64,000 nt of DNA from IMG/VR virus record IMGVR_UViG_3300043446_003193, positions 1 through 64,000 of that record; one strand, 5' to 3'. Under the pieces are notes generated by a model. The model made no database searches. It was not told the origin of the DNA and saw only the letters and a program-made list of their open reading frames with translations. This document shows, piece by piece, positions 5,477 to 49,695 of this stretch. Each line of letters begins with the position of its first letter. The stretch's first letter is position 1. The translations under genes were made by a program, and so were the position numbers. This DNA is from a virus.

Positions 5477-6751
5477 CTACCAAACGATAGTTTCTTCATC
5501 AGTTACATTGTCCTCAACCTCATTGAAAAGTTGAGTTTCTTCATCTGATTTAATATATTTTTGTAGCAATTGAGTCATAAATACTCTCTCACTATCCAAC
5601 CCACCATCATTACTGAAATAAGGTAAGATTGCGATTTGTGCAGCTTCAAACAAACTGAAACCGTCGTAAACCAATCCAGCAGCTTCTACATTCACACGAG
5701 TAGAAACGATAGTTGAAATCTTACTTGCATCAGTTTTGATTAACTGGCGAGTCGTATCGGCAATCTCTGCCAATGCGTTTAATGAATACTCATCAGCTTC
5801 AGGGAACTTAAACTTCAATAACGCAAGTTCGTTTTCCTTATCTAGCAAGTCCATTTCAATTTGAACAAAACGGTCCATCAATGCTCTATCCATTACACGA
5901 GTTGCAGTGTACTCACCACCGATATTCGCGGTTGCGATAAATGTAACACCACTTGCTACTTTAACGATTGGTGAACCTTCGGCCTCATCTAATCGTAAAT
6001 ATCTTTGACCCTGATCTAACACAGTCATTAAGATATTAGCGGCTTCTGGGTGAGCTCTACTCAATTCATCCAATAGGATAATTGCGTTTGGAGTTTTGAT
6101 TGCTTTAACGAATGCCGATTCACTAAAGAAAGTACCATTCTCTTTGTTAAAGTGAGTGTTACCGATTAAGGTTGCTCTAGCATCTTGCGTAGCACCTAAG
6201 TTAAAGTAGAAATCAGGTCGTTTCAATGATTTAACCAACGATTGAGCGGCTAATGTTTTACCACAACCGGTCGGTCCTGTCATTAAGATATTCTTACCTC
6301 TAACTGCTGAACGGAGTAAATACTTCCACTTCAATTCTTCAATGAACAATCCATTAGGTTTTAATTCTTTACCTTTTGTATGGATAAATTCTTTTAAAGC
6401 ATCGTGAGTTTCAAATGATTCACTTACACTATCACATGCTTCATCCGATATTGTAGCAGAATGTTTTTTGAACTCATCAATTTCAACTAACTTATAAGAT
6501 AGTTTACCATTTTTACTTATGTACGCTTGGATAGCTTTGTTTTCAGCTTCTGCTTGTTTCATCTTAGCTGAACTAATACCCGCAACTTTTGTTACAGGTT
6601 GATTTTGTGTTGTCAACATACCGAATGTACGTCCCAACTTAATTACTTTATAGATTTCATTTGTGAAACCTACATTAAAGTCCTTGACTTTAGTTGATTT
6701 TCTTTTTACCATAGTAGTAGTTTTACTTTTGTTACTTTGATTTCTACGCAT
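5477..6751 (-). CDS. AAA+ ATPase, MoxR/CobS-like
   Basis: Walker A GPTGCGKT, Walker B ILLDE, sensor region; about 150 aa basic N-terminal extension; sits immediately downstream of the vWA gene. Confidence 0.8.
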   Translation of the reverse strand: MRRNQSNKSKTTTMVKRKSTKVKDFNVGFTNEIYKVIKLGRTFGMLTTQNQPVTKVAGISSAKMKQAEAENKAIQAYISKNGKLSYKLVEIDEFKKHSATISDEACDSVSESFETHDALKEFIHTKGKELKPNGLFIEELKWKYLLRSAVRGKNILMTGPTGCGKTLAAQSLVKSLKRPDFYFNLGATQDARATLIGNTHFNKENGTFFSESAFVKAIKTPNAIILLDELSRAHPEAANILMTVLDQGQRYLRLDEAEGSPIVKVASGVTFIATANIGGEYTATRVMDRALMDRFVQIEMDLLDKENELALLKFKFPEADEYSLNALAEIADTTRQLIKTDASKISTIVSTRVNVEAAGLVYDGFSLFEAAQIAILPYFSNDGGLDSERVFMTQLLQKYIKSDEETQLFNEVEDNVTDEETIVW

Positions 6752-6780
6752 AACTTTATTGTTTATTTATTGGTGATTTG

Positions 6781-6822
6781 ATACTCAAATATACGACTTT
6801 TTTTTGATACTACCAAATCTAT
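6781..6822 (-). promoter_or_regulatory. promoter upstream of AAA+ gene: -33 TTTG, 20 nt spacer, -7 TATATTTG (minus orientation)
   Basis: rc reads TTTGGTAGTATCAAAAAAAAGTCGTATATTTG, matching the Bacteroidota sigma-A consensus TTTG-N19-21-TAnnTTTG; part of a repeated cassette. Confidence 0.6.
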
Positions 6823-6855
6823 TTATAATTGATTGATTTCTAATGACTTATAGGC

Positions 6856-6884
6856 ATAAAAAAAGGGTAATATATAACCCTTTG
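6856..6884 (-). terminator. intrinsic terminator hairpin AAAGGGTTATATATTACCCTTT plus T-run after the vWA gene
   Basis: Minus-strand reading: GC-stem hairpin followed by TTTTTTTATGCC. Confidence 0.55.
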
Positions 6885-6944
6885 ATTATCAATAAGTTAT
6901 GAAAGGGGACCAGAAAGTCCCCATTTCATTGGGGCTTTCCGAGC

Positions 6945-9236
6945 CTATTTTTTGTTTTTTGATAGGAATAACTCGTTCATAGTTTTGGCAACTTCAAACA
7001 TATTTTCCACATTCACGTACTTAGCATCATTTCCATACATTTTTTTGAAAATTTGCCAATCGGATGAATGTTCAAAATTACTACCATAATCAGTAATAAA
7101 GTAAGAAAGTACATCTATACCATTATCTTTGATTTTGGTCACTTGCTTTTTTGTGTGAACTGCTGCAGGTTCACCCGAATAATGCATATCATCACTACCT
7201 CTACTGATTGAGTAAGAAGGTTGTCCGTCAGAAAAGTTTAAGAAATAACTTTGACTATCATTTGTTGATGGAACTAAGTTTTTCAATATTGCTTCAAAAC
7301 ACAAACCTTCTGGTGTAGTATTACTTGCTTGCAATATACCCATATATTTTGCGAATTGTTTAAATGAGTCTCTACGAGAATCGTGGATAATTGCAACATA
7401 TGGTAAACAATTACCACCACTATCGGTAGAACGAATTGAAACTTGTACATTGATATTACGAGCCATTTCACATGCTTTTACAATAGCGACGGTTGATACA
7501 ATACACTTTCTTAACTTATCACCTTGCATTGAACCGGAATAGTCAATTGATATGTGTAAGTTTGCTTTCTTAAACTGGTCAACTTCATTTGTATAAAACA
7601 CGTTCTCATTATCATAACCTAATGAAGCAACCATTCTACCGTCAATCTTACCACGTTTCAATCTACTGAATATCGTTTCACGACTTTCACTACGAACTTG
7701 CAGTTTCTTACCCAATAGAGTACCTAACATTGTACCCTTACGAACTTCCTCTTCTGCCCATATCTTTGGCTCACCTGTTCTCCAATCGTTATTAGAGAAC
7801 GGAAAGTCTTCGGATTTTAATAGATTTTCTGTCAATCGTTTTACTACGATACAGTCTACACCTTTCATTTGTGTACCATATCTATCCATACCATTACCTA
7901 CACGAACCAATTCGGTATCTGATTCTTGAATGTCTTTTAGTTTTTCCAACTCGCTCTTTTGAACATTCTTCTTTTTGATATTACCATTGATGAAGTCCTT
8001 TTGCTTTTGGATTTTCTTATCCAATTGTTTTTTAGCAGTATCGGATAACTTCACTTTAGTATTACCTTGCTGACCCTGTCCATCATCAGTATTACCCAAT
8101 TTAGCAGTCGCTTGTCCACTAACATTTCCATTTCCACCGCCCATTTCACTGCCATTATCTTCACTATCACCATCTTCAATTTCAGTAATCTCTACTTCGT
8201 TCTCATCTCCATCACCACTTTGTCCTTTACCCAATCCTTTACCTTTCATCATCTCTGCGTTTTCGTAAGGAACGGTTTTAAGTATCTCAGCAAGAATGTC
8301 AATAGATAATTGGAAACTATCTTTGGTTGATGTCAAACGGCTAATATCTTTTAGGTTTACCATACGATATATGGCTCTCAAACCTTTTAACTTAGATAGG
8401 TCAGTTTTTTCGTTCATCAAGTTGATAATACGGAACATATAGGCTTCAAACGTCTCATCCGTATATTCATCACTTGCGATACCTTTGGTAACGATTTTAT
8501 CATTGAAATAGTTATCATACATTTGAGTATAATAATCTCTATAACCAGGTGCTGATTTGAAAATATACATATCAATACGTCTATCTTCTACCCAATTAGT
8601 AAGAGAACTGATGATACCGAATATTTCTTCATTCATTGAACCTTTACTACCAATCACACCGGTAGACAAATACATCTCATTGAATAGATTTTCGTATTTT
8701 GGGTATTGTTTAGTATATCCTTTGATAGTATCATCTATTTTATCAATAGTCCAACTCGGTGTTGTGATACCATTTGCAATTTCATTTGCAGTATCACTCA
8801 TAATCTTTCGTTGTAATCTTTGATAGTTACTAAACATTTCGTTCATATTAGATAACAGATCAAAGTCAGATAATAGAATGTGTGAACCTTCGTGCAATGC
8901 TAAACCAACTGAAACGTCAAATTTATCATCTACATCTGCAGAAAGGATAACTTTTTTACCATCCGTTTTACTATCACTTTTTGTAGCGAATGTAACAGGT
9001 ATATTCTTTTGTGTAACGATTTGAACGAAATTGGCAATAGCTCGTCTTACGGATGCCAACTTATAAAGGTTATTAGTTTTTTTGAAAAGGTCTAAATCCT
9101 TCTTTTGGAAACCACCATAGGTTTCTAATACATCATACGAAGTATCGTAATCATCATACCAAAATGATGATACTTTACTTTTCGCGTTGACTAGGTAATC
9201 TTTTGTACCCGTCTTAAAATTCTCATACCAACTCAT
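6945..9236 (-). CDS. von Willebrand factor A domain protein, CobT-like partner of the AAA+ ATPase
   Basis: C-terminal vWA domain with MIDAS DxSxS (IDYSGSM); Gly/Asp/Glu-rich acidic linker; 763 aa. Confidence 0.75.
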   Translation of the reverse strand: MSWYENFKTGTKDYLVNAKSKVSSFWYDDYDTSYDVLETYGGFQKKDLDLFKKTNNLYKLASVRRAIANFVQIVTQKNIPVTFATKSDSKTDGKKVILSADVDDKFDVSVGLALHEGSHILLSDFDLLSNMNEMFSNYQRLQRKIMSDTANEIANGITTPSWTIDKIDDTIKGYTKQYPKYENLFNEMYLSTGVIGSKGSMNEEIFGIISSLTNWVEDRRIDMYIFKSAPGYRDYYTQMYDNYFNDKIVTKGIASDEYTDETFEAYMFRIINLMNEKTDLSKLKGLRAIYRMVNLKDISRLTSTKDSFQLSIDILAEILKTVPYENAEMMKGKGLGKGQSGDGDENEVEITEIEDGDSEDNGSEMGGGNGNVSGQATAKLGNTDDGQGQQGNTKVKLSDTAKKQLDKKIQKQKDFINGNIKKKNVQKSELEKLKDIQESDTELVRVGNGMDRYGTQMKGVDCIVVKRLTENLLKSEDFPFSNNDWRTGEPKIWAEEEVRKGTMLGTLLGKKLQVRSESRETIFSRLKRGKIDGRMVASLGYDNENVFYTNEVDQFKKANLHISIDYSGSMQGDKLRKCIVSTVAIVKACEMARNINVQVSIRSTDSGGNCLPYVAIIHDSRRDSFKQFAKYMGILQASNTTPEGLCFEAILKNLVPSTNDSQSYFLNFSDGQPSYSISRGSDDMHYSGEPAAVHTKKQVTKIKDNGIDVLSYFITDYGSNFEHSSDWQIFKKMYGNDAKYVNVENMFEVAKTMNELFLSKNKK

Positions 9237-13959: not shown

Positions 13960-13965
13960 ATTTTG

Positions 13966-14053
13966 CGGAGAGTCAGGGATTTGAACCCCAGATACCTTTC
14001 GGGTATGCCAATTTTCAAGATTGGTGCGATAAACCAGACTCTGCCAACTCTCC
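13966..14053 (-). tRNA. tRNA-Ser(TGA), class II with long variable arm
   Basis: rc: GGAGAGT...CACCAATCTTGAAAATTGG...GGGGTTCAAATCCCTGACTCTCCG; anticodon loop CTTGAAA. Confidence 0.8.
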
Positions 14054-14058
14054 TAATA

Positions 14059-14328
14059 CTAATAGATATGTGTTTCTTCGTTTCTGAAGTCTTTCGTATC
14101 TATTTCCATTTTATTTTGTCTTATTCTAGCTTCTTCTGCTCTTTTGACCATTCTTATCCAAGTTATAGATGCGTCAACAGGTGCCAAAACCCATGCCATC
14201 ATTAATACCATAATGGCATCTAATTCAGGAGATTGCCCAGTTGGATCAGGAGAATATCGTTTCTTATAAGTTTTAAATAACTGATAAAAACAATAAATAA
14301 CACAAAGTACATAATAAGTAACTAACAT
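14059..14328 (-). CDS. small membrane protein (89 aa)
   Basis: ORF track; hydrophobic N-terminus. Confidence 0.4.
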   Translation of the reverse strand: MLVTYYVLCVIYCFYQLFKTYKKRYSPDPTGQSPELDAIMVLMMAWVLAPVDASITWIRMVKRAEEARIRQNKMEIDTKDFRNEETHIY

Positions 14329-14560
14329 AACTTTTATTTTTATTTTTAAAATGAGTTTGTGAGGAATGAATCCAATTAAAAAAGGTTATCCAAATTTCAA
14401 AGAGGTTTGAGTTTATTGAAATAGCTGACAAGAGACCCTAATATTATTGAAGTTTGTTAATAATTCATTTATCTTATTCGTTCATCCGCTTGGTTGCTCA
14501 CAAGTAGTATTGCAAGAATAAACTAATCAATCAGTTTCAAACCCCACTCACTCAATATTT

Positions 14561-14989
14561 TTATATTTGTGTGTTTGCATTGTGAATATCCAATTCGTTT
14601 TGCAACTCTTCAATTCTTTCACTTAACACATCCACTTTGTTTTGAATATCCACCACATTCAATTCCACTTCTTTTACCGAAATAACACTTCCATATCTTT
14701 CAGCCACTTTACCTTCTTCGGTTGGAACTTTCTTTAATTCCTTTACCAATCCTTTCAATTCTGCTAATTCAAATATTTTAGCATATACCGGTTGATTTGC
14801 TTTATGGATTTTTGCTTTCAACTCAACTAACTCCAATTGAATCGTTTCAATTACCGTCAATGTAACGGACATTGAATATCTACGTGGGTTTCCTTCTTCA
14901 ATTGAGTTATACTTTTTCAAAATCTCATATTGAGCTTTCAAATCAGTAACCAATTTGTTTTTTTGTTTTAATGCTTGTTTTACATTCAT
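14561..14989 (-). CDS. coiled-coil protein (142 aa)
   Basis: Heptad-rich K/E/L sequence; promoter motif at 15011..15055 upstream. Confidence 0.5.
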   Translation of the reverse strand: MNVKQALKQKNKLVTDLKAQYEILKKYNSIEEGNPRRYSMSVTLTVIETIQLELVELKAKIHKANQPVYAKIFELAELKGLVKELKKVPTEEGKVAERYGSVISVKEVELNVVDIQNKVDVLSERIEELQNELDIHNANTQI

Positions 14990-15010
14990 TTTTTTAGGTT
15001 TTAATATTTT

Positions 15011-15055
15011 AAATATACAAATAATTTTTCAAATTACCAAATAAAAATAAGCAGG
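15011..15055 (-). promoter_or_regulatory. promoter: TTTG, 20 nt spacer, TATATTTA
   Basis: rc reads TTTGGTAATTTGAAAAATTATTTGTATATTTA about 25 nt upstream of the ATG at 14989. Confidence 0.5.
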
Positions 15056-15132
15056 TGTGGAGTCACCTACTTATTTTAGTGAATGAGAAACATCTGAATC
15101 TCTTTGTGGCTGTATCACCAAAGCCCATTCGG

Positions 15133-15239
15133 TGCCAGAGGAGGGTCTGGTTACCCACACGGTGTCCATTTCGGATTCACCACCCACCTAGGAAGGGAAC
15201 GTCTAATAGTTGTACACACTATCATTCCGCCACTCTGGC
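15133..15239 (-). ncRNA. degenerate tRNA-like element: 5' GCCAGAGTGGCGGAATGATAG..., 3' ...CCTCTGGCA, aberrant interior
   Basis: The 5' end resembles a class II tRNA acceptor/D-arm and the 3' CTCTGGC pairs with it, but no canonical anticodon or T arm is found. Confidence 0.3.
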
Positions 15240-15243
15240 ATAT

Positions 15244-15331
15244 GTGCCCCGAGCAGGATTTGAACCTGCACCCGTATTTTCGCCGGACAGCATTTTAAGT
15301 GCTGCGAGTCTACCAATTTCTCCATCGGGGC
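15244..15331 (-). tRNA. tRNA-Leu(TAA), class II
   Basis: rc: GCCCCGATGGAGAAATTGGTAGACTCGCAGCACTTAAAATGCTGTCCGGCGAAAATACGGGTGCAGGTTCAAATCCTGCTCGGGGCA. Confidence 0.85.
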
Positions 15332-15336
15332 AAACT

Positions 15337-15777
15337 CTATTTTATATTTCTCGCTCTATATGTGTTAGTTTGCGAATGACAATTAGGACAAATTATTCTT
15401 AAATTTTCTAATCTATGATTTGTTCTATCACCATCAATATGGTCTAATTCAAATGAAACTGGTTTATTGTTCCATTTTAGTATACCACACACTTCACATT
15501 TTTCCTGTTTAATACTTTCTTTAATCAATCTAATTCTTAATTTATTAGTTTGATATTGTGGATGTTTTCCATCTAGTATTTCAGAAAGAGCTATTTTATC
15601 AAATCCATCTTTTTTTGGTTTTTTTATTCCTTTTCCAGATTGATTTATTTTATAACATCCCAATTTAACAGCTCTATTTTTTAGAGTATTAAAATGAATA
15701 CCAAGTTCAGCTGCAGCTTTTGCCATTGAAATTGATTTTTTACACATTTTAATTATTTCATCATCATTTACTTTCAT
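15337..15777 (-). CDS. HNH homing-type endonuclease with N-terminal HTH
   Basis: HNH core ELDHIDGDRTNHRLENLRIICPNCH; HTH AAAELGIHFNTLKNRAVKLG; start trimmed to MKVNDDEII. Confidence 0.75.
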   Translation of the reverse strand: MKVNDDEIIKMCKKSISMAKAAAELGIHFNTLKNRAVKLGCYKINQSGKGIKKPKKDGFDKIALSEILDGKHPQYQTNKLRIRLIKESIKQEKCEVCGILKWNNKPVSFELDHIDGDRTNHRLENLRIICPNCHSQTNTYRARNIK

Positions 15778-15818
15778 ATTGATTTTAATAATAAGTATAT
15801 GACATGATAGAAAAACAA

Positions 15819-16383
15819 TCAATTGTGTATAACTATCTCAATTGGTTTTCCCAAATAATCAATATCACATTCAGTCCAAAGTTGTTCTGACATAGATATT
15901 GAAATTTTTGCAGAATATGGTAGATTATTATTCTTACCTACCCAACCGGTTAGTTTTCCTTTTTTAGAAAATGTTTCAATCCAATTTAATTTTGAATAAT
16001 CAATTAGTGACGAATCAAACTGAATTAAATAGTATTTTCTAATTCCTTTTTTCCACTCTCCTTTATTCCTACCCAACATTATATATGTATCACAATGTTT
16101 TTTAGAAATAAAATTTATTTTATCTTTTATAGTTTCATGTGAAGTAGTTCTATGACCACTCCAAGTTATACTACCTTTCTTATGATTTATATCCCCACTT
16201 TTGTTTTGATAATTCGTTCCATCTGCTTCCGATACAACATCCGTTCCAACATCATGTCCACCTACATTCCAATTTGAATCCATCCCATTTATACATTGGT
16301 CAAAAATATCTTCCCACAATTCCGCTTTGACAGGAAATCGGTATAACTGATGATGTAACTTTATCTTTTCTTCTATCTTCTTA
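15819..16383 (-). CDS. hypothetical protein (188 aa; start trimmed to MIKKDIV to clear tRNA-Arg)
   Basis: ORF 15819..16436 would overlap tRNA-Arg at 16398; the internal ATG at 16383 avoids this. Confidence 0.5.
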
Positions 16384-16397
16384 ACAATATCTTTCTT

Positions 16398-16471
16398 TAT
16401 CATATATAAACCGTTTGTGATTCGGAATGGATTCAAACCATTGACCCACAGCTTAGAAGGCTGTTGCTCTA
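16398..16471 (-). tRNA. tRNA-Arg(TCT)
   Basis: rc: GGTTCGGTAGCTCAGTTGAATAGAGCAACAGCCTTCTAAGCTGTGGGTCAATGGTTTGAATCCATTCCGAATCA. Confidence 0.8.
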
Positions 16472-16571
16472 TTCAACTGAGCTACCGAACCTAATAAAAC
16501 ACAATCATCTCACAATCTTCAGATGCTAGCGGTTGCCGAGCTAATTGCATATACAACCGAATTGTGTTTTG

Positions 16572-16645
16572 CGGAACGTAGGGGACTTGAACCCCTGGCC
16601 TCTGCCGTGACAGGGCAGCGTTATAACCAACTTAACTAACGTTCC
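16572..16645 (-). tRNA. tRNA-Asp(GTC)
   Basis: rc: GGAACGTTAGTTAAGTTGGTTATAACGCTGCCCTGTCACGGCAGAGGCCAGGGGTTCAAGTCCCCTACGTTCCG. Confidence 0.85.
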
Positions 16646-16704
16646 AATTTGTAGGTGGGACTAACCTACTTCGGTTTTGTACTTCAACCATTTAAGTCCT
16701 TTTG

Positions 16705-16777
16705 AGCCTCCGGTCAGACTTGAACTGACGACCTGCTGATTACAAATCAGCTGCTCTACCAACTGAGCTACAAAGGC
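16705..16777 (-). tRNA. tRNA-Thr(TGT)
   Basis: rc: GCCTTTGTAGCTCAGTTGGTAGAGCAGCTGATTTGTAATCAGCAGGTCGTCAGTTCAAGTCTGACCGGAGGCT. Confidence 0.8.
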
Positions 16778-17001
16778 ATTTAGGAAAGTAGAGGATGGGT
16801 GCGTGGACAACTACTTTTATGATTGGCTTTACTAACCGATAGTAGCGTATTAGATTTTCACTAACTCGTTTTAGCGGGCTACTTTTGTTCCCAATCAACC
16901 TATATGGTCGGTAAGAGGTAGTCACGGCTACTTCTATTCCCTCTTACCTATTCATACACTAACGGCTAAATGTAGCACGACCGAGTGTGATGTATGATGT
17001 G

Positions 17002-17073
17002 TACTCCCAACGGGATTTGAACCCGTGCTACCACTGTGAAAGAGTGGTGACCTAACCCCTAGTCCATGGGAGC
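17002..17073 (-). tRNA. tRNA-Glu(TTC)
   Basis: rc: GCTCCCATGGACTAGGGGTTAGGTCACCACTCTTTCACAGTGGTAGCACGGGTTCAAATCCCGTTGGGAGTA; G1:U72 wobble. Confidence 0.75.
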
Positions 17074-17122
17074 GACTGATAAATCAAATATACAACTAAT
17101 ATTTTACTTTACCAAATATTTG

Positions 17123-17204
17123 TACCCAAAGAGAGATTTGAACTCTCAAGCCTTTCGGCACTGGTTTCTAAGACCAGCGTGTCTGCCAGTTCCACCATTC
17201 GGGT
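17123..17204 (-). tRNA. tRNA-Leu(TAG), class II
   Basis: rc: ACCCGAATGGTGGAACTGGCAGACACGCTGGTCTTAGAAACCAGTGCCGAAAGGCTTGAGAGTTCAAATCTCTCTTTGGGTA. Confidence 0.8.
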
Positions 17205-17209
17205 TGATG

Positions 17210-17298
17210 CGGAAAGTGTAAGATTTGAACTTACGATACAATTTGATTCGTATGGCAGTTTAGCAAACTGCTGGTTTCAGCCACTCACCCAACTTTCC
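17210..17298 (-). tRNA. tRNA-Ser(GCT), class II
   Basis: rc: GGAAAGTTGGGTGAGTGGCTGAAACCAGCAGTTTGCTAAACTGCCATACGAATCAAATTGTATCGTAAGTTCAAATCTTACACTTTCCG. Confidence 0.8.
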
Positions 17299-17381
17299 GA
17301 TTGGGGTGTTAGAACGGTACTGCCCCGTCTTATCTAGCTCCACAAACTAGCGCATCACTTTAATGCTTCAAACACCATTTG

Positions 17382-17451
17382 AGGTTAGTGTTAGAATTGA
17401 ACTAACTCCGTGAGATTTGCAGTTTCACCGGCCGCCACGACCTAACTAACC
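17382..17451 (-). tRNA. tRNA-Cys(GCA) (short D-loop, one A-C mismatch in anticodon stem)
   Basis: rc: GGTTAGTTAGGTCGTGGCGGCCGGTGAAACTGCAAATCTCACGGAGTTAGTTCAATTCTAACACTAACCT; anticodon loop CTGCAAA. Confidence 0.55.
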
Positions 17452-17457
17452 ATTTTG

Positions 17458-17529
17458 TAGCCCCTAAAGGATTTGAACCCTTACTAAAACATCCGTAGTG
17501 TTTCGTGCTGTCCGTTACACCAAAGAGCT
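17458..17529 (-). tRNA. tRNA-Arg(ACG)
   Basis: rc: AGCTCTTTGGTGTAACGGACAGCACGAAACACTACGGATGTTTTAGTAAGGGTTCAAATCCTTTAGGGGCTA. Confidence 0.75.
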
Positions 17530-17534
17530 ATTTG

Positions 17535-17605
17535 CACCCATCGTAGGATTTGAACCCACATCAACGGTTTTGGAGACCGGTATGCTACCATTGCACCAGA
17601 CGGAT
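17535..17605 (-). tRNA. tRNA-Trp(CCA)
   Basis: rc: ATCCGTCTGGTGCAATGGTAGCATACCGGTCTCCAAAACCGTTGATGTGGGTTCAAATCCTACGATGGGTG; two G-U pairs in the acceptor stem. Confidence 0.7.
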
Positions 17606-17666
17606 GTATTATATTTTATAGTTTCTATGTCAGTTTTAACCTTACATCATTACTATAAAACATGTG

Positions 17667-17739
17667 TAGGAATAATAGGACTTGAACCTATGACTTTTGA
17701 CGTATCAGATCAACGCTCTACCAACTGAGCTATATTCCT
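17667..17739 (-). tRNA. tRNA-Ile(GAT)
   Basis: rc: AGGAATATAGCTCAGTTGGTAGAGCGTTGATCTGATACGTCAAAAGTCATAGGTTCAAGTCCTATTATTCCTA. Confidence 0.85.
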
Positions 17740-17744
17740 ATTTG

Positions 17745-17818
17745 TTGGGAATGCAGGATTTGAACCTACGGCCTCTTGCTCCCAAAGCAAGCGCGATACC
17801 TGACTACGCTAATTCCCA
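17745..17818 (-). tRNA. tRNA-Pro(TGG)
   Basis: rc: TGGGAATTAGCGTAGTCAGGTATCGCGCTTGCTTTGGGAGCAAGAGGCCGTAGGTTCAAATCCTGCATTCCCAA. Confidence 0.8.
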
Positions 17819-17823
17819 ATATG

Positions 17824-17894
17824 TTGCTCCTCATGGATTTGAACCACAACTAGATGCTCCAAAAACACCTGTGCTACCGTTACACCAAAGAGCA
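17824..17894 (-). tRNA. tRNA-Gln(TTG) (weak T-stem; 5' half paralogous to tRNA-Arg(ACG))
   Basis: rc: TGCTCTTTGGTGTAACGGTAGCACAGGTGTTTTTGGAGCATCTAGTTGTGGTTCAAATCCATGAGGAGCAA; anticodon loop TTTTGGA. Confidence 0.6.
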
Positions 17895-17900
17895 ATTTTG

Positions 17901-17972
17901 AGCGGGTGAGAGGAATCAAACCTCCGTCTCCTACTTGGAAGGAAGGAGTAATAATCATTATACGACACCCGC
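17901..17972 (-). tRNA. tRNA-Gly(TCC) (one mismatch in anticodon stem; T-loop TTTGATT)
   Basis: rc: GCGGGTGTCGTATAATGATTATTACTCCTTCCTTCCAAGTAGGAGACGGAGGTTTGATTCCTCTCACCCGCT; perfect 7 bp acceptor stem; loop CTTCCAA. Confidence 0.6.
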
Positions 17973-17982
17973 TTATGTTTTG

Positions 17983-18054
17983 CGCTTTCCGAGAATTACG
18001 ATATCTCGCCCCCATCGTTAACAGCGATGTGCTCTGCCTCTGAGCTAGGAAAGC
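17983..18054 (-). tRNA. tRNA-Asn(GTT) with atypical 9 nt T-loop
   Basis: rc: GCTTTCCTAGCTCAGAGGCAGAGCACATCGCTGTTAACGATGGGGGCGAGATATCGTAATTCTCGGAAAGCG; the 5' acceptor overlaps the last 3 codons of the HNH gene at 18045..18401. Confidence 0.7.
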
Positions 18055-18401
18055 TTTTGTTTTTCTATTTCATCATGTATTTCCATGTGACAATTACAAC
18101 ATACTAAAATACATTTATCTAATTCTTTTTTCATTTTTTCCCAACTTATACTAGGTCTTGATAAAGAATATTCTTTTTCACTTGGTTCTAAATGATGGAA
18201 TGCTAATGCTCTATTACATTTATCATATCCACATTTTTCACATTTACCACCTTTGTATTCAATCGCTTTGATTTTCATTTTATCTCTACGATTAGATACT
18301 GAAATAGATGCACATTTTTTACATCTATACGCACCATCTACTCTTAATACAAATTCAGTTTTTCCATGTGTTTTACATTCTTTAATTTCTGTCTTATTCA
18401 T
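18045..18401 (-). CDS. HNH endonuclease (Cys-rich, CCNCH)
   Basis: Multiple CxxC pairs and the HNH signature LVCCNCHMEIH; embedded in the tRNA array, 3' end overlapping tRNA-Asn by about 7 nt. Confidence 0.65.
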   Translation of the reverse strand: MNKTEIKECKTHGKTEFVLRVDGAYRCKKCASISVSNRRDKMKIKAIEYKGGKCEKCGYDKCNRALAFHHLEPSEKEYSLSRPSISWEKMKKELDKCILVCCNCHMEIHDEIEKQKLS

Positions 18402-18461
18402 AATATTCTTTATTATAAATATATTTGATTAACATTTTAAGTTAATCATTTATAGTTTTTG

Positions 18462-18542
18462 TGGGAGCAGAAGGACTTGAACCTACGAACTCAATGAGGG
18501 CGGATTTACAGTCCGCTGCAATTGCCACTATGCGATGCTCCC
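18462..18542 (-). tRNA. tRNA-Tyr(GTA), class II
   Basis: rc: GGGAGCATCGCATAGTGGCAATTGCAGCGGACTGTAAATCCGCCCTCATTGAGTTCGTAGGTTCAAGTCCTTCTGCTCCCA. Confidence 0.85.
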
Positions 18543-18974: not shown

Positions 18975-19047
18975 GAGCGAATGTGGGAATTGAACCCTAT
19001 CTTCCACCCCGTTAAGAGTGGTGTGCTTCCGTTACACTATATTCACT
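18975..19047 (-). ncRNA. tRNA-like gene with probable 8 nt anticodon loop (CTTAACGG) and weak T-stem: candidate suppressor/frameshift tRNA or pseudogene
   Basis: rc: AGTGAATATAGTGTAACGGAAGCACACCACTCTTAACGGGGTGGAAGATAGGGTTCAATTCCCACATTCGCTC. Acceptor AGTGAAT/ATTCGCT pairs 7/7 (one G-U); D-arm paralogous to the Arg(ACG)/Gln tRNAs. Confidence 0.4.
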
Positions 19048-19954
19048 TAAAATGAGTGAGATTACCTCATTGGGAGTACCAACTTTAGAAAGATTATTTG
19101 TTTCCTTTCCTATCCACTACCTTTTGAGTAGTACCGATACAATGTGGATGATTTGAGACTATCAGTCTTTGAGTTACGTCTTACTCTCTTTATACTCCGC
19201 TTCTTCAAATCTGCCGACCTGATTAAACCTTGCGGGTTTAGAAGTTTTTCCAAAGAATCACAGACCTCTTGCGGAGGTATCGTGGCAAGGAACAGCTCCC
19301 TACTATGTACACACCTTTCGTCCGTAACTGGCAAACACTTATGCTTTTATTTAAATTGAATAATCAAATCCGCATTTGATAAAAGGGTTGGTTTGTAGAT
19401 GGGTTCAGGTAGCGGTTTGCCAACCAGCTCCCTCAACTTTTGGCCGAGAGAATACTGAACTACCCGATGTGTTATCGTCAACACCATTTTTCAAGTCATC
19501 TTCATTAATAGGGATTGGTGTCCCACATTAAAGGTTAGTAACAACACCACTTGTACACCAACATACCTTACGTCCTTTCGGATAGCTTGGTTTTAAGACC
19601 ACTCTTAAATTGAATACCGCAATAGTGTAAAGTGATTAGCCTTACATTTCTTACAGGTATTCTATGGGTTATTCTTATTGTTCTTCCGAACTCAACCGAA
19701 GTATCTACTTACCCCGGTTATTCAAACTCTTCCGATATAGTGTTACCCTTTCGTACAAAGCTCAAATAATATCCCACTTGCATACTTAAGTTATTCTCTC
19801 CTTACGGGGAGAGTAACCGCAGATTGTGTAAACCTAACAATCCACTTTATCCTACTTTCGTAGTTTATTTGACGACCATATGCGGCCGTTGTTTACTATG
19901 TAGAAAAATCTACTATGTAAAATATTTTCAATCTTTTAAAGAACTATTCGTTTT

Positions 19955-20350: not shown

Positions 20351-20424
<74 letters not shown>

Positions 20425-20432
20425 ATATTATG

Positions 20433-20832
20433 TGGAGATGAGGGGATTTGAACCCCTGTCTTACAAAGAACTAATAATACCAGCATATCACACGTTTATT
20501 TCAGTTTCTACTGAAAAAATATTTAATTTAGTTAAAGTGAGTTTAAGGGTTCAAATTAAAAAATAACTCTTCATAACGGAGTCTCACTGTCCTATACTTT
20601 TAGGTGTATTAAACCTTTGTAGACACTTCTGTTACTAGGCGTATGTGTACCGGCCCTATTGTTGTGATTAGGCTGCTACAGCGTAATCAGCACCTACAAA
20701 CGCCATTAAATCGTTGTAAGTCATTGTTGACATTTCGTCATTTATTGTTTTGTACATAGTTTAAAGAGGTATAGTACATATCTCTACGTGTGGTACTACT
20801 ATTTGCATTGCAATCAATTCCATAGCATCCCC
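20433..20832 (-). ncRNA. ssrA: tmRNA (ssrA-like), about 400 nt; candidate tag ORF ...G-A-D-Y-A-V-A-A-stop
   Basis: 3' end rc AGACAGGGGTTCAAATCCCCTCATCTCCACA resembles the tmRNA 3' consensus GGACGGGGGTTCAAATCCCCCCGGCTCCACCA. A 5' GGGGATG about 400 nt upstream (rc of 20826..20832) pairs with 3' CATCTCC. Internal frame GGT GCT GAT TAC GCT GTA GCA GCC TAA encodes an ssrA-like tag. Promoter motif at 20881..20912 gives a ~35 nt leader. Confidence 0.6.
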
Positions 20833-20880
20833 ATTCAAAGAACTACACAATAATTATATATTTTTGTGATTTGAATATCA

Positions 20881-20912
20881 AATATACGACAAATATTCCA
20901 AATTACCAAATA
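20881..20912 (-). promoter_or_regulatory. promoter upstream of tmRNA: TTTG, spacer, TATATTTG
   Basis: rc reads TTTGGTAATTTGGAATATTTGTCGTATATTTGA. Confidence 0.5.
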
Positions 20913-24604: not shown

Positions 24605-25240
24605 CTATTTAAATTTTAATCCTGTAAGTTTTTCTATATCCTCTCTCAAAACTTCATGCGATTTCAATCCTGATGGTTTGTCTGCCACATTATCAAATGA
24701 AAAGAAAAACCATTCACCTGTTTTTTTAATATGTACAACTTTCCAACACTCTTTTGGAACTGCTACTTTACCTATTCTTTTAATCTCACCAACATTCCCC
24801 GCCCAAATGTGAACTGAATCATCTTTGACTGCCCATTCTCTTGTTGCAGTTTCCAATGATTTCCAATCTCCTGCATTTAATGAATGATATTGAGCTGCCA
24901 TATTACTCATATAGAAACATTCAATTTGAACGTCTGCAGTTTGACATTGATTAGATGCCGCAGGAGACATATGTCCTCTATCAAATCCACTTCCTACATA
25001 ATCTGCTTTAATATCAGTTAATTCAACCGCTTGTGGGTCTGGTTGGAATGCATCTTTTCTTGGTAATGGATTTGGACAACCAACTTTTGCTTTGGTTTCC
25101 CACCACTCTACCATTACTGGATATCTTTTTGATTTACTGAAATGTGATGTGTAGTTTGTATGTTTTAATACTACGATGTCTTGAGAGAATGTAACTACAA
25201 ATAAAAATAACAATGTAGTCAATAACAATAATTTTTTCAT
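24605..25240 (-). CDS. secreted DNA/RNA non-specific endonuclease (NucA/Serratia nuclease family)
   Basis: Signal peptide MKKLLLLTTLLFLFVVTFSQ; active-site DRGHMSPAA motif. Confidence 0.7.
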   Translation of the reverse strand: MKKLLLLTTLLFLFVVTFSQDIVVLKHTNYTSHFSKSKRYPVMVEWWETKAKVGCPNPLPRKDAFQPDPQAVELTDIKADYVGSGFDRGHMSPAASNQCQTADVQIECFYMSNMAAQYHSLNAGDWKSLETATREWAVKDDSVHIWAGNVGEIKRIGKVAVPKECWKVVHIKKTGEWFFFSFDNVADKPSGLKSHEVLREDIEKLTGLKFK

Positions 25241-48849: not shown

Positions 48850-49695
48850 TTATTTATTTTTTAATGCGAACTGTGCCGCTTTATATGCTTTTGTATCTTT
48901 ATCGTATGCAAGTGCTGTTTTTATTTTAACCATATTACCTGTTTCTGGATTTTTAATTTTCTTATCCATATCTTTTGGTAACAATGATTTTAAACGCATA
49001 TCATTACCTTTTGGTGTTTCCTTTTTACTCACTTCTTTTTCTTTTTGAGTGTGATTGAATTTCTTTTCAGGAGCCTTTGGTATATCATGTTTTACATGAT
49101 TAACCTTCATTTTAATATTAGGATATTTTTCTTTTAATTTAGAAACTGCTGCTACATTTTTATGAGAATCGTCTATAAAAAATACATCATTGTATCCCTT
49201 CTTAATTTTATCTTCAATCCAATCTGCTTTCTTTTGTGGGTCAGAATCACCCAATGCAACTACATACATTCCTTCTAAACCAATATCGTGTAAATAATCT
49301 TTAACTGGTTTGTATGCACTTCTTGCTGTAAGAATTACAACCTTTCTTTCACCTTCTGCTCTTGCAATAGTTTTTAATAATTTTGTAACACCTTTAATTT
49401 CTTGTGGTTGATTTACTTTTTCAAAATCAGAGAAATCAAATTGATCATCTGATTTAGGTTCATATACTGCGTATTCACCAGGAGTTAATTTAGATTCTTT
49501 ACCATCACCATGCTTAACATAGATATGTGATTTTGTTTTAACTAATGTATCATCAAAATCAAATACTCTTAATTTTTTATTTGTATCCGCTTCATTCACA
49601 GGATTAAATGCAAATGCATTTAAATTTGAATATACTTTACCAAATTCAACCTTTAGGCCATTCCACATTCCTTCTATGAATCCGTTTTTACCCAT
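48850..49695 (-). CDS. HAD-superfamily phosphatase (PNK 3'-phosphatase-like)
   Basis: Motif I VFDFDDTLV; Lys-rich C-terminus. Confidence 0.55.
   Translation of the reverse strand: MGKNGFIEGMWNGLKVEFGKVYSNLNAFAFNPVNEADTNKKLRVFDFDDTLVKTKSHIYVKHGDGKESKLTPGEYAVYEPKSDDQFDFSDFEKVNQPQEIKGVTKLLKTIARAEGERKVVILTARSAYKPVKDYLHDIGLEGMYVVALGDSDPQKKADWIEDKIKKGYNDVFFIDDSHKNVAAVSKLKEKYPNIKMKVNHVKHDIPKAPEKKFNHTQKEKEVSKKETPKGNDMRLKSLLPKDMDKKIKNPETGNMVKIKTALAYDKDTKAYKAAQFALKNK

Follow-up and report, generated by a model that had tools for sequence, protein, structure and literature searches.

A one-piece tmRNA gene with a long tag reading frame in a large phage and in related environmental viral contigs

Cluster C mycobacteriophages encode transfer-messenger RNAs (tmRNAs), the products of ssrA genes. 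Among isolate phages, tmRNAs have been found in 402 of 18,146 genomes (2.3%), including the two-piece tmRNA of the methylophage Melnitz (PMC9004378), and huge phages also encode them (PMC7162821). A phage-encoded ssrA as such is thus already known, and the gene described here adds a member to an established class; its unusual feature is a long tag that is under selection. The gene lies on the minus strand of a 64,000-nucleotide stretch of viral DNA (IMG/VR record IMGVR_UViG_3300043446_003193, positions 1 to 64,000), hereafter called the window. Like the phage tmRNAs described before, it is a complete ssrA in a large phage with many tRNAs and translation-related genes, and it would presumably support translation during infection. 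It differs from them in being one-piece and unpermuted, in having a conserved tag of 23–25 amino acids, and in its place within a module that also contains an initiator tRNA-Met and the RNA GOLLD.

The other close systems are cellular. With the one-piece bacterial ssrA represented by the Rfam family RF00023, the window gene shares a full-model match, an acceptor stem with G3·U70, a T-arm, a long helix 2 and a first pseudoknot (PK1) before the resume codon, as well as a G-initial resume codon, a tag ending in YA-V-AA, a stop codon near a small hairpin, and, after it, PK2 and putative further pseudoknots. In contrast to bacterial ssrA, it is phage-encoded, its tag has 23 amino acids instead of about 9–11, its PK4 is AU-rich and divergent, its terminal CCA is incompletely encoded, and a cognate smpB was not found nearby. 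Tags of the GE[NT]NYALAA type characterize the Bacteroidota-type tmRNAs, which resemble the phage RNA in total length, tag start, xYA[LV]AA tag end, and Bacteroidota-type promoters. Some phage clades also share with them the tRNA-like-domain motifs GGUUUUGACAG and UUUGGACGAGGGUUCGA...CUCCAC. The phage tag, however, is 14–16 residues longer, and the clade to which the window belongs is much more AU-rich.

The gene was located by ARAGORN at 20432–20832, minus strand (401 nt), and the Rfam tmRNA model RF00023 matched 20430–20832 on the same strand with 79.6 bits (gathering score, 47; E = 3e-29) over its complete length (model positions 1–374 of 374), a match whose strength is far beyond chance. 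No open reading frame (ORF) of 50 amino acids or more lies over it on either strand. The mature RNA starts at the G in position 20832 and has its discriminator A at 20433 (A400); of the CCA, the window encodes only the first C (20432), whereas the full CCA is present in about half of the family described below. A first-pass annotation, made from the letters of the DNA, had proposed a phage-encoded ssrA beside a tRNA array, and every string that it quoted was found on the minus strand of 20431–20912. These include the 3' motif AGACAGGGGTTCAAATCCCCTCATCTCCACA (20431–20461), which resembles the T-arm/acceptor consensus, and GGGGATG as the 5' strand of the acceptor stem, 401 nt upstream. That proposal now stands on two independent detectors, together with covariation in the family, PK1 and PK2, and the phage context; the two ends form a tRNA-like domain, and PK1 and the resume-codon context are both present. 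We conclude that 20432–20832 is a genuine, complete one-piece tmRNA carried by a phage. Judging from its sequence and those of its relatives, we put the probability that it is a functional phage tmRNA at about 0.88, and the best-supported reading is that the phage would supply an ordinary trans-translation RNA.

Relatives of the gene were retrieved from IMG/VR in two ways. The exact 21-mer of the tag end, GATTACGCTGTAGCAGCCTAA, gave 103 contigs, and a pattern from the 5' end, GGGGATGCTNTGGAATTGATTGC, gave 28 contigs, of which 15 were new. ARAGORN called 91 tmRNAs in the retrieved loci, 64 of them distinct. These 64 (63 from the fetched loci, and that of the window) encode variants of one peptide with 22–25 residues, 23–25 in all but one; examples, with the frame read from the stop codon, are DEMSTMTFEDLMAFVGADYAVAA, DVELSTWTFDDVMAFVGADYAVAA, and GEEKSSFTWEDAMAFIGADYAVAA. 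The same tmRNA family is carried by more than 100 IMG/VR contigs, and it is a widespread, previously undescribed viral tmRNA family. Among GenBank phages (50,697 records), no sequence relative of the window tmRNA was found. In the syntenic contig L006, the tmRNA, tRNA-Met, GOLLD and the tRNA array follow one another in the same order as in the window. A 507-amino-acid protein encoded upstream of the tmRNA has homologues (44–58% identity) at 37 IMG/VR loci, on contigs of up to 335 kb; L006 alone among these loci holds the tmRNA, which is therefore not a constant feature of that phage lineage. A scan of viral contigs with a 25-mer from the T-arm/acceptor region returned a single contig, L001 (IMGVR_UViG_3300014501_000061), which was set aside, as its tmRNA is permuted, unrelated and not of this family. 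That two-piece RNA, at 8366–8543 on the minus strand, matched RF04321 with 78 bits and was missed by ARAGORN.

In the window RNA, the acceptor stem is formed by GGGGAUG (20826–20832; gene positions 1–7) and CAUCUCC (20434–20440), with a wobble at G3·U70. The latter strand makes up, with the T-arm AGGGG-UUCAAAU-CCCCU (20441–20457), the segment 20434–20457. A long helix 2 joins a 5' strand at 20786–20813 (gene positions 20–47) to a 3' strand at 20461–20495 (positions 338–372), and a small hairpin, GCUG-UAG-CAGC (20672–20682), covers the last codons of the tag; all of these are on the minus strand. Pairing in these elements, with helix 2 taken in three segments, was counted in an alignment of 51 distinct members (alignment A2). 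Standard pairs occupied 92.8% of the cells, compared with 40–54% when the partners were slid by 1–3 columns, and the covariation score was 0.373, compared with 0.05–0.12 after the same displacement. Changes on both sides were seen at 22 of the 38 pairs. For four of the five measures, the observed values were reached in none of 500 shuffles. The G3·U70 pair, the identity element for alanine, is present in all 51 members, window included, and acceptor pairs 5 and 6 show compensatory changes across the family. The T stem is 100% paired, with double-sided changes in four of its five pairs, and the helix 2 segments H2a, H2b, and H2c are 86–98% paired, with many compensatory changes.

When helices were searched for without bias on a MAFFT alignment, and with RNAalifold, only the tRNA-like domain was recovered. 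Because the pseudoknot regions were misaligned by MAFFT, PK1 and PK2 were examined sequence by sequence, taking the best H-type pseudoknot of each. PK1 of the window (20751–20785, minus strand; gene positions 48–82) consists of S1 AGAG/CUCU and S2 UGUAC/GUACA and has a high posterior probability in the Rfam PK1 alignment. Nearly all distinct members (45 unique regions) have an H-type pseudoknot here, and complementarity is kept while the stems change from clade to clade, S1 being AGAG/CUCU, AGACA/UGUCU, AGUGG/CCACU or CGGGUU/AAUCCG and S2 UGUAC/GUACA, GUGC/GCAC, GUAAG/CUUAC or UGAUAC/GUAUCG. PK2 was folded by hand in the window (20619–20658, minus strand; gene positions 175–214) as S1 UAGG(g)C/GCCUA and S2 GUACAC/GUGU(cu)AC. 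It occurs in nearly all members, in two architectures with compensatory changes, and the window has the rarer type, in common with loci L145, L117, and L041. Its mean pseudoknot score, 24.9, is a modest excess over that of mononucleotide shuffles (21.0; sd, 5.3), and the support for PK2 comes from the compensatory changes in its stems, not from the score. A PK3-like element (20594–20616) and the divergent, AU-rich PK4 region (20500–20593, with a terminal hairpin UUCAGU-AGAA-ACUGAA), both on the minus strand, were also folded by hand. Of the four pseudoknots named in the first-pass annotation, PK1 and PK2 are therefore supported, while PK3 and PK4 of the window have been hand-folded only. In alignment A2 the window tmRNA looks like a mosaic: its 5' part and PK1 are nearest to those of L152, which has a type A PK2, whereas its own PK2 is of type B, common to L145 and L117. 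This suggests that recombination may have taken place between family members.

The reading frame of the tag was determined from ARAGORN, the Rfam alignment of the resume region, and a codon-position test. It occupies 20668–20739 on the minus strand, from the resume codon GAC (20737–20739) through 23 codons, DEMSTMTYNDLMAFVGADYAVAA, to the stop codon UAA (20668–20670), and it starts at gene position 94. The frame is internal, has no start codon, and ends in ADYAVAA-UAA, that is, a hydrophobic xAA degron and a stop. In the window, PK1 is followed by the linker AAAACAAUAAAU and then by GAC. Depending on the clade, the resume codon is GAC, GCA or GGC, always G-initial and preceded by a conserved AACAAUAA-NN, and the resume codon of the family aligns with that of the Rfam consensus. 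A much shorter tag, (G)ADYAVAA, had at first been read from GGT GCT GAT TAC GCT GTA GCA GCC TAA. This string is present and ends at 20668, but a tag of seven or eight residues has to be abandoned, since the frame begins 15 codons further upstream and encodes 23 amino acids. Two tags called by ARAGORN, VNKPEHYLSAP and EQPQLYLSAV, were rejected as miscalls; the genes concerned hold DVELSTWNFEDAMAFVGAYDYAVAA.

The codon-position test used the 13 codons for S-T-M-T-F-E-D-L-M-A-F-V-G, which lie outside the 21-mer used for retrieval and occur in 35 distinct DNA versions. Column entropy was 0.42, 0.34, and 0.89 at the first, second, and third codon positions, respectively, and pN/pS was 0.34 in the tag frame, compared with 1.14 and 1.45 in the other two frames. 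In 10 of the 13 codon columns, one and the same residue is encoded by at least two synonymous codons (e.g., TCA/TCT, ACT/ACC, TTC/TTT, TTA/CTT, GCT/GCA/GCG/GCC, and GTA/GTT/GTC). This coding-type variation in the upstream codons indicates that the whole tag is translated and is under purifying selection. It also bears on the idea that the RNA is mainly a decoy, titrating host SmpB, alanyl-tRNA synthetase (AlaRS) or stalled ribosomes, and thereby blocking host trans-translation (e.g., a defence or lysis-timing signal). Such a role would agree with the divergence of the PK4 region and with the finding that no phage SmpB is encoded nearby, which would leave the RNA to compete for that of the host. 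A pure decoy, however, needs no selected reading frame, and here the 13 tag codons are under coding-type selection, the stop codon and the C-terminal AA are kept, and there is conservation both of PK1 and of the surroundings of the resume codon, on which the choice of frame depends. We consider it very unlikely that the RNA acts chiefly in this way.

The 16 residues before the degron have the consensus D-E/V-x-S-T-M/W-T-F-E/D-D-L/A-M-A-F-V-G. An S/T-rich acidic start is followed by F, L, M, F, and V at i, i+3, i+4, i+6, and i+7, and then by Gly; as read from the sequences, the aromatic and hydrophobic residues have a spacing that would put them on one side of a helix. Most likely, this extension would serve as a second recognition element, for example as a segment that binds an adaptor or a protease. 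The tag had no match in GenBank phages by tblastn, and DYAVAA was not found as a tag in the searchable literature. The long ssrA tags of Mycoplasma reportedly have about 27 amino acids and depend on Lon. They are extended and contain internal hydrophobic and aromatic residues, as the phage tag does, which suggests determinants beyond the C-terminal dipeptide; the sequences are unrelated, and the phage tag, unlike those of Mycoplasma, keeps the canonical YAxAA end.

One possibility, against which we would still give the odds, is that the long tag redirects polypeptides to another protease of the Lon or FtsH type, to a phage-encoded partner, or into the recycling of amino acids for phage synthesis. 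Purifying selection on the extension, its length (23–25 amino acids in total, compared with nine in Bacteroidota-type tags), and the regular pattern of aromatic and hydrophobic residues after the acidic start would all fit, and the reported switch of Mycoplasma to Lon offers a parallel. Yet the window yielded no candidate for such a partner or protease, its AAA+ protein encoded at 5477–6751 looking like a CobS/MoxR type, and neither Pfam nor PDB has a match to the tag peptide; moreover, the canonical YAVAA end suggests that ordinary ClpXP targeting is retained. Redirection would in any case refine the explanation by ordinary trans-translation rather than compete with it. A narrower and more doubtful version is that the extension may be a phage-specific signal, placed on stalled host and phage polypeptides alike and read by a partner other than ClpXP (another protease, an adaptor or a phage protein); this we regard as fairly unlikely.

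The tag end was also compared with those of cellular tmRNAs. The native tag of Bacteroides is GETNYALAA (bioRxiv 10.1101/2025.03.18.644028). A scan for DNA encoding ADYAVAA and a stop, which covered 185,579 species of bacteria and archaea with one genome apiece, gave six chance hits and no tmRNA. In metagenomes, a scan for GE-x-NYALAA and a stop gave at least 120 loci, with 101 tmRNAs among the matches listed; among these, the tag was mostly GENNYALAA, the length about 392–400 nt and the tag start 94–97, and GE[NTYDS]NYALAA was present in 90 or so of the 101. By BLAST, the similarity of the phage gene to GExNYALAA-type tmRNAs is confined to 47–70 nt of the 3' tRNA-like domain (77–89%), little above its similarity to the ssrA of E. 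coli. Such limited similarity to cellular tmRNAs argues for an old viral lineage and not for a recent capture from a host or a remnant of an attachment (att) site.

This comparison also weighs on the view that the gene is a host-derived fragment or a recent capture, left by integration at ssrA or by imprecise excision of a prophage and without function in the phage. It is true that ssrA is a common integration site and that fragments of it occur in prophages (discussed in PMC9004378), and the 401 nt and the tag start at 94 match the GENNYALAA-type tmRNAs of the metagenomes. But the gene is full-length and lies within a block of phage genes and tRNAs on the same strand, its family spans more than 100 viral contigs with compensatory changes, and no integrase was found among the ORFs scanned. 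Together with the lack of any ADYAVAA-stop tmRNA in the species genomes and the short reach of the similarity to the GExNYALAA type, these findings leave an origin of this kind with a negligible share of the probability.

Upstream of the gene there is a predicted promoter of the Bacteroidota type (20879–20910, minus strand), with the –33 element TTTG at 20907–20910, a spacer of 20 nt, and the –7 element TATATTTG at 20879–20886. These elements correspond to the reported –33/–7 consensus of Bacteroidota promoters. In the window, 46 nt lie between the end of TTTG-N20-TATATTTG and the mature 5' end, and the element is identical in L006. Across the family, TTTG-N17-22-TAnnTTTG was found in 25 of 57 distinct upstream regions, whereas 0.0105 would be expected per 110 nt in the same loci, an enrichment of ~40-fold; from the end of the motif to G1 there are 13 nt in most members and 38–46 nt in the clade of the window. 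The "consensus promoter" previously noticed about 35 nt upstream is a real string, a sigma-70-like match in 11 of 12 positions (TTGATA-17-TATAAT; 20853–20881, minus strand), but only 20 nt separate its –10 hexamer from the mature 5' end. The region holds five sigma-70-like matches, against a shuffle expectation of 5.4. Because this stretch is deleted in L006, the closest relative, and is not conserved in the family, it was rejected as the main promoter, and the functional one is likely that of the –33/–7 type.

Directly before the mature 5' end lies a conserved proximal motif, in the window the leader GUAGUUCUUUGAAU (20833–20846, minus strand), with U at position –1. Position –1 is U in 54 and position –2 is A in 44 of the 57 distinct members, and GTTC[TA]TT[GA]AA..TAT immediately precedes G1 in 26 of them. 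A U(–1) fits cleavage by RNase P, and the motif could direct processing, act as a proximal promoter or offer an alternative partner for pairing. It is retained also in members whose upstream sequence is coding and lacks a nearby –33/–7 promoter. The core of the motif in the window, UAGUUCUUUG, recurs in the 3' strand of helix 2 (gene positions 360–369).

Seven nucleotides downstream of the tmRNA starts a tRNA-Met(CAU) gene (ARAGORN; 20351–20424, minus strand), and no terminator-like site was found directly after the tmRNA gene and before this tRNA. The two are probably co-transcribed. The tRNA has a C1xA72 mismatch, which is a hallmark of bacterial initiator tRNAs, and its anticodon stem has two G-C pairs at the base instead of three; the phage thus seems to have an initiator-type tRNA of its own, linked to the tmRNA. 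Among the 46 distinct members with enough downstream sequence, 21 have a tRNA-Met after the tmRNA. Altogether, 19 tRNA genes lie between 13965 and 20424 on the strand of the tmRNA. An array of 17 tRNAs with 17 different anticodons occupies 13965–18542 (minus strand), with some spacings of only 4–10 nt and with an ORF for an HNH endonuclease (15337–15822) inside it.

A GOLLD RNA (RF02032, 267 bits, full model) is encoded at 19053–19467 on the minus strand, 965 nt downstream of the tmRNA, and its counterpart in L006 is at 14073–14487. By nhmmer, GOLLD was found 0.8–1.5 kb downstream of a tmRNA of this family, on the same strand, at 22 or more IMG/VR loci. This recurrent linkage indicates that the tmRNA, tRNA-fMet, GOLLD, and the tRNA array form a conserved module with the tmRNA at its head. 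Six nucleotides past the 3' end of GOLLD lies a tRNA-like element (18975–19046, minus strand) with a 6-nt anticodon loop, which ARAGORN calls "tRNA-?(Leu|Val)(aa)" and which scores 31.6 bits against the Rfam tRNA model; it is similar to the pseudo-tRNA that has been reported inside GOLLD genes or beside them. That GOLLD occurs in tRNA clusters, along with a pseudo-tRNA and an HNH endonuclease, is already known (PMC6582537). In the accessible parts of the literature that names both terms, no linkage of GOLLD to a tmRNA was found.

Phage products, ORFs on one strand, and homologous loci on IMG/VR contigs place the gene in a viral genome. With the exception of a handful of overlapping ones, all ORFs of at least 120 amino acids are on the minus strand, and the G+C content is ~31%. 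The phage-like products include an endolysin (phrog_181, 1e-69), an exonuclease, an HNH endonuclease, and glycosyltransferases. Other host-takeover or RNA-related genes, all on the minus strand, are those for a polynucleotide-kinase-like protein (phrog_415; 48850–49695), a DNA/RNA non-specific endonuclease (PF01223, 4e-33; 24605–25240), and a CobS/CobT-like AAA+/vWA pair (the AAA+ protein and one of 763 amino acids; 5477–9236). Near and distant BLAST searches of the locus and the surrounding 25 kb against GenBank phages gave tRNA-level matches only. By tblastn, a 1093-amino-acid protein of the window matched only two gut "Bacteriophage sp." fragments among these phages. A protein of the window is also encoded on a 56-kb JGI contig and on a 0.2–1 Mb contig.

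Shine-Dalgarno-like 4-mers precede 3 of 55 ORFs, compared with 8% of random 16-mers. Freshwater Bacteroidetes phages of 293–331 kb have been described in a paper that does not mention tmRNA (PMC9723584), and the scarcity of Shine-Dalgarno motifs, the G+C content, and the tRNA load of the window would resemble those of that group. The gene belongs to a large phage of the lytic type with Bacteroidota-like expression signals, which probably infects Bacteroidota. Of the host first suggested, one of the Flavobacteriia, the expression signals bear out the Bacteroidota level, and assignment to the Flavobacteriia is not supported.

In the mechanism that we propose, the tmRNA and tRNA-Met would be transcribed as one precursor, which RNase P would cut between U(–1) and G1 and again at the 5' end of the tRNA, and the 3' trailer would be trimmed and the CCA completed by host enzymes. 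It is from the partial CCA, the lack of a terminator, and the adjacent tRNA-Met that co-transcription, 3' trimming, and CCA addition are deduced. The host AlaRS would charge the RNA with alanine, in keeping with the invariant G3·U70, and host SmpB and EF-Tu would bring it to ribosomes stalled on broken or non-stop mRNAs. Translation would then resume at GAC and add 23 residues ending in YAVAA, a C-terminal degron of the ClpXP type, the ribosome would be freed, and the tagged products would undergo proteolysis. The benefit to the phage may be that ribosomes are kept free while host mRNA is destroyed and host transcription falls. The phage may in this way, as the first-pass annotation proposed, manipulate ribosome rescue during infection.

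Several points weigh against this account or parts of it. A tblastn search with E. coli SmpB as the query turned up no SmpB-like ORF in either the window or the fetched loci, so that function would depend on the fit of the RNA with the SmpB of the host; the host assignment itself draws only on promoter and Shine-Dalgarno statistics. The family was in part retrieved by the exact 21-mer of the tag end, and the conservation of the last seven codons is therefore subject to ascertainment bias, for which reason they were excluded from the codon test. The resume codon, placed by alignment and the heuristics of ARAGORN, could be off by one codon. As to PK3 and PK4, the hand-folded versions of the window have a low Rfam posterior probability, include a 48-nt AU-rich insert, and align poorly in MAFFT. 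In the tmRNA of E. coli, PK2–PK4 tolerate replacement, and the uncertainty about PK3 and PK4 is for that reason no argument against function.

To our knowledge, phage-borne tmRNAs have been catalogued and are functionally unstudied. What is new here is how large the family is among environmental viral contigs, a tag end that was found in no tmRNA when cellular reference genomes were scanned, selection at the peptide level on a tag over twice as long as the presumed host tag, and the conserved linkage of tmRNA, initiator-type tRNA-Met, and GOLLD. The selected long tag offers a testable handle on what a phage gains from an ssrA of its own, and the linkage to an initiator-type tRNA and GOLLD provides a lead on the function of GOLLD. 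If the tag were read by a partner other than ClpXP, the phage would re-programme the outcome of ribosome rescue rather than boost rescue itself, and the module of tmRNA, initiator tRNA, and GOLLD would point to a co-ordinated unit for the takeover of translation by the phage.

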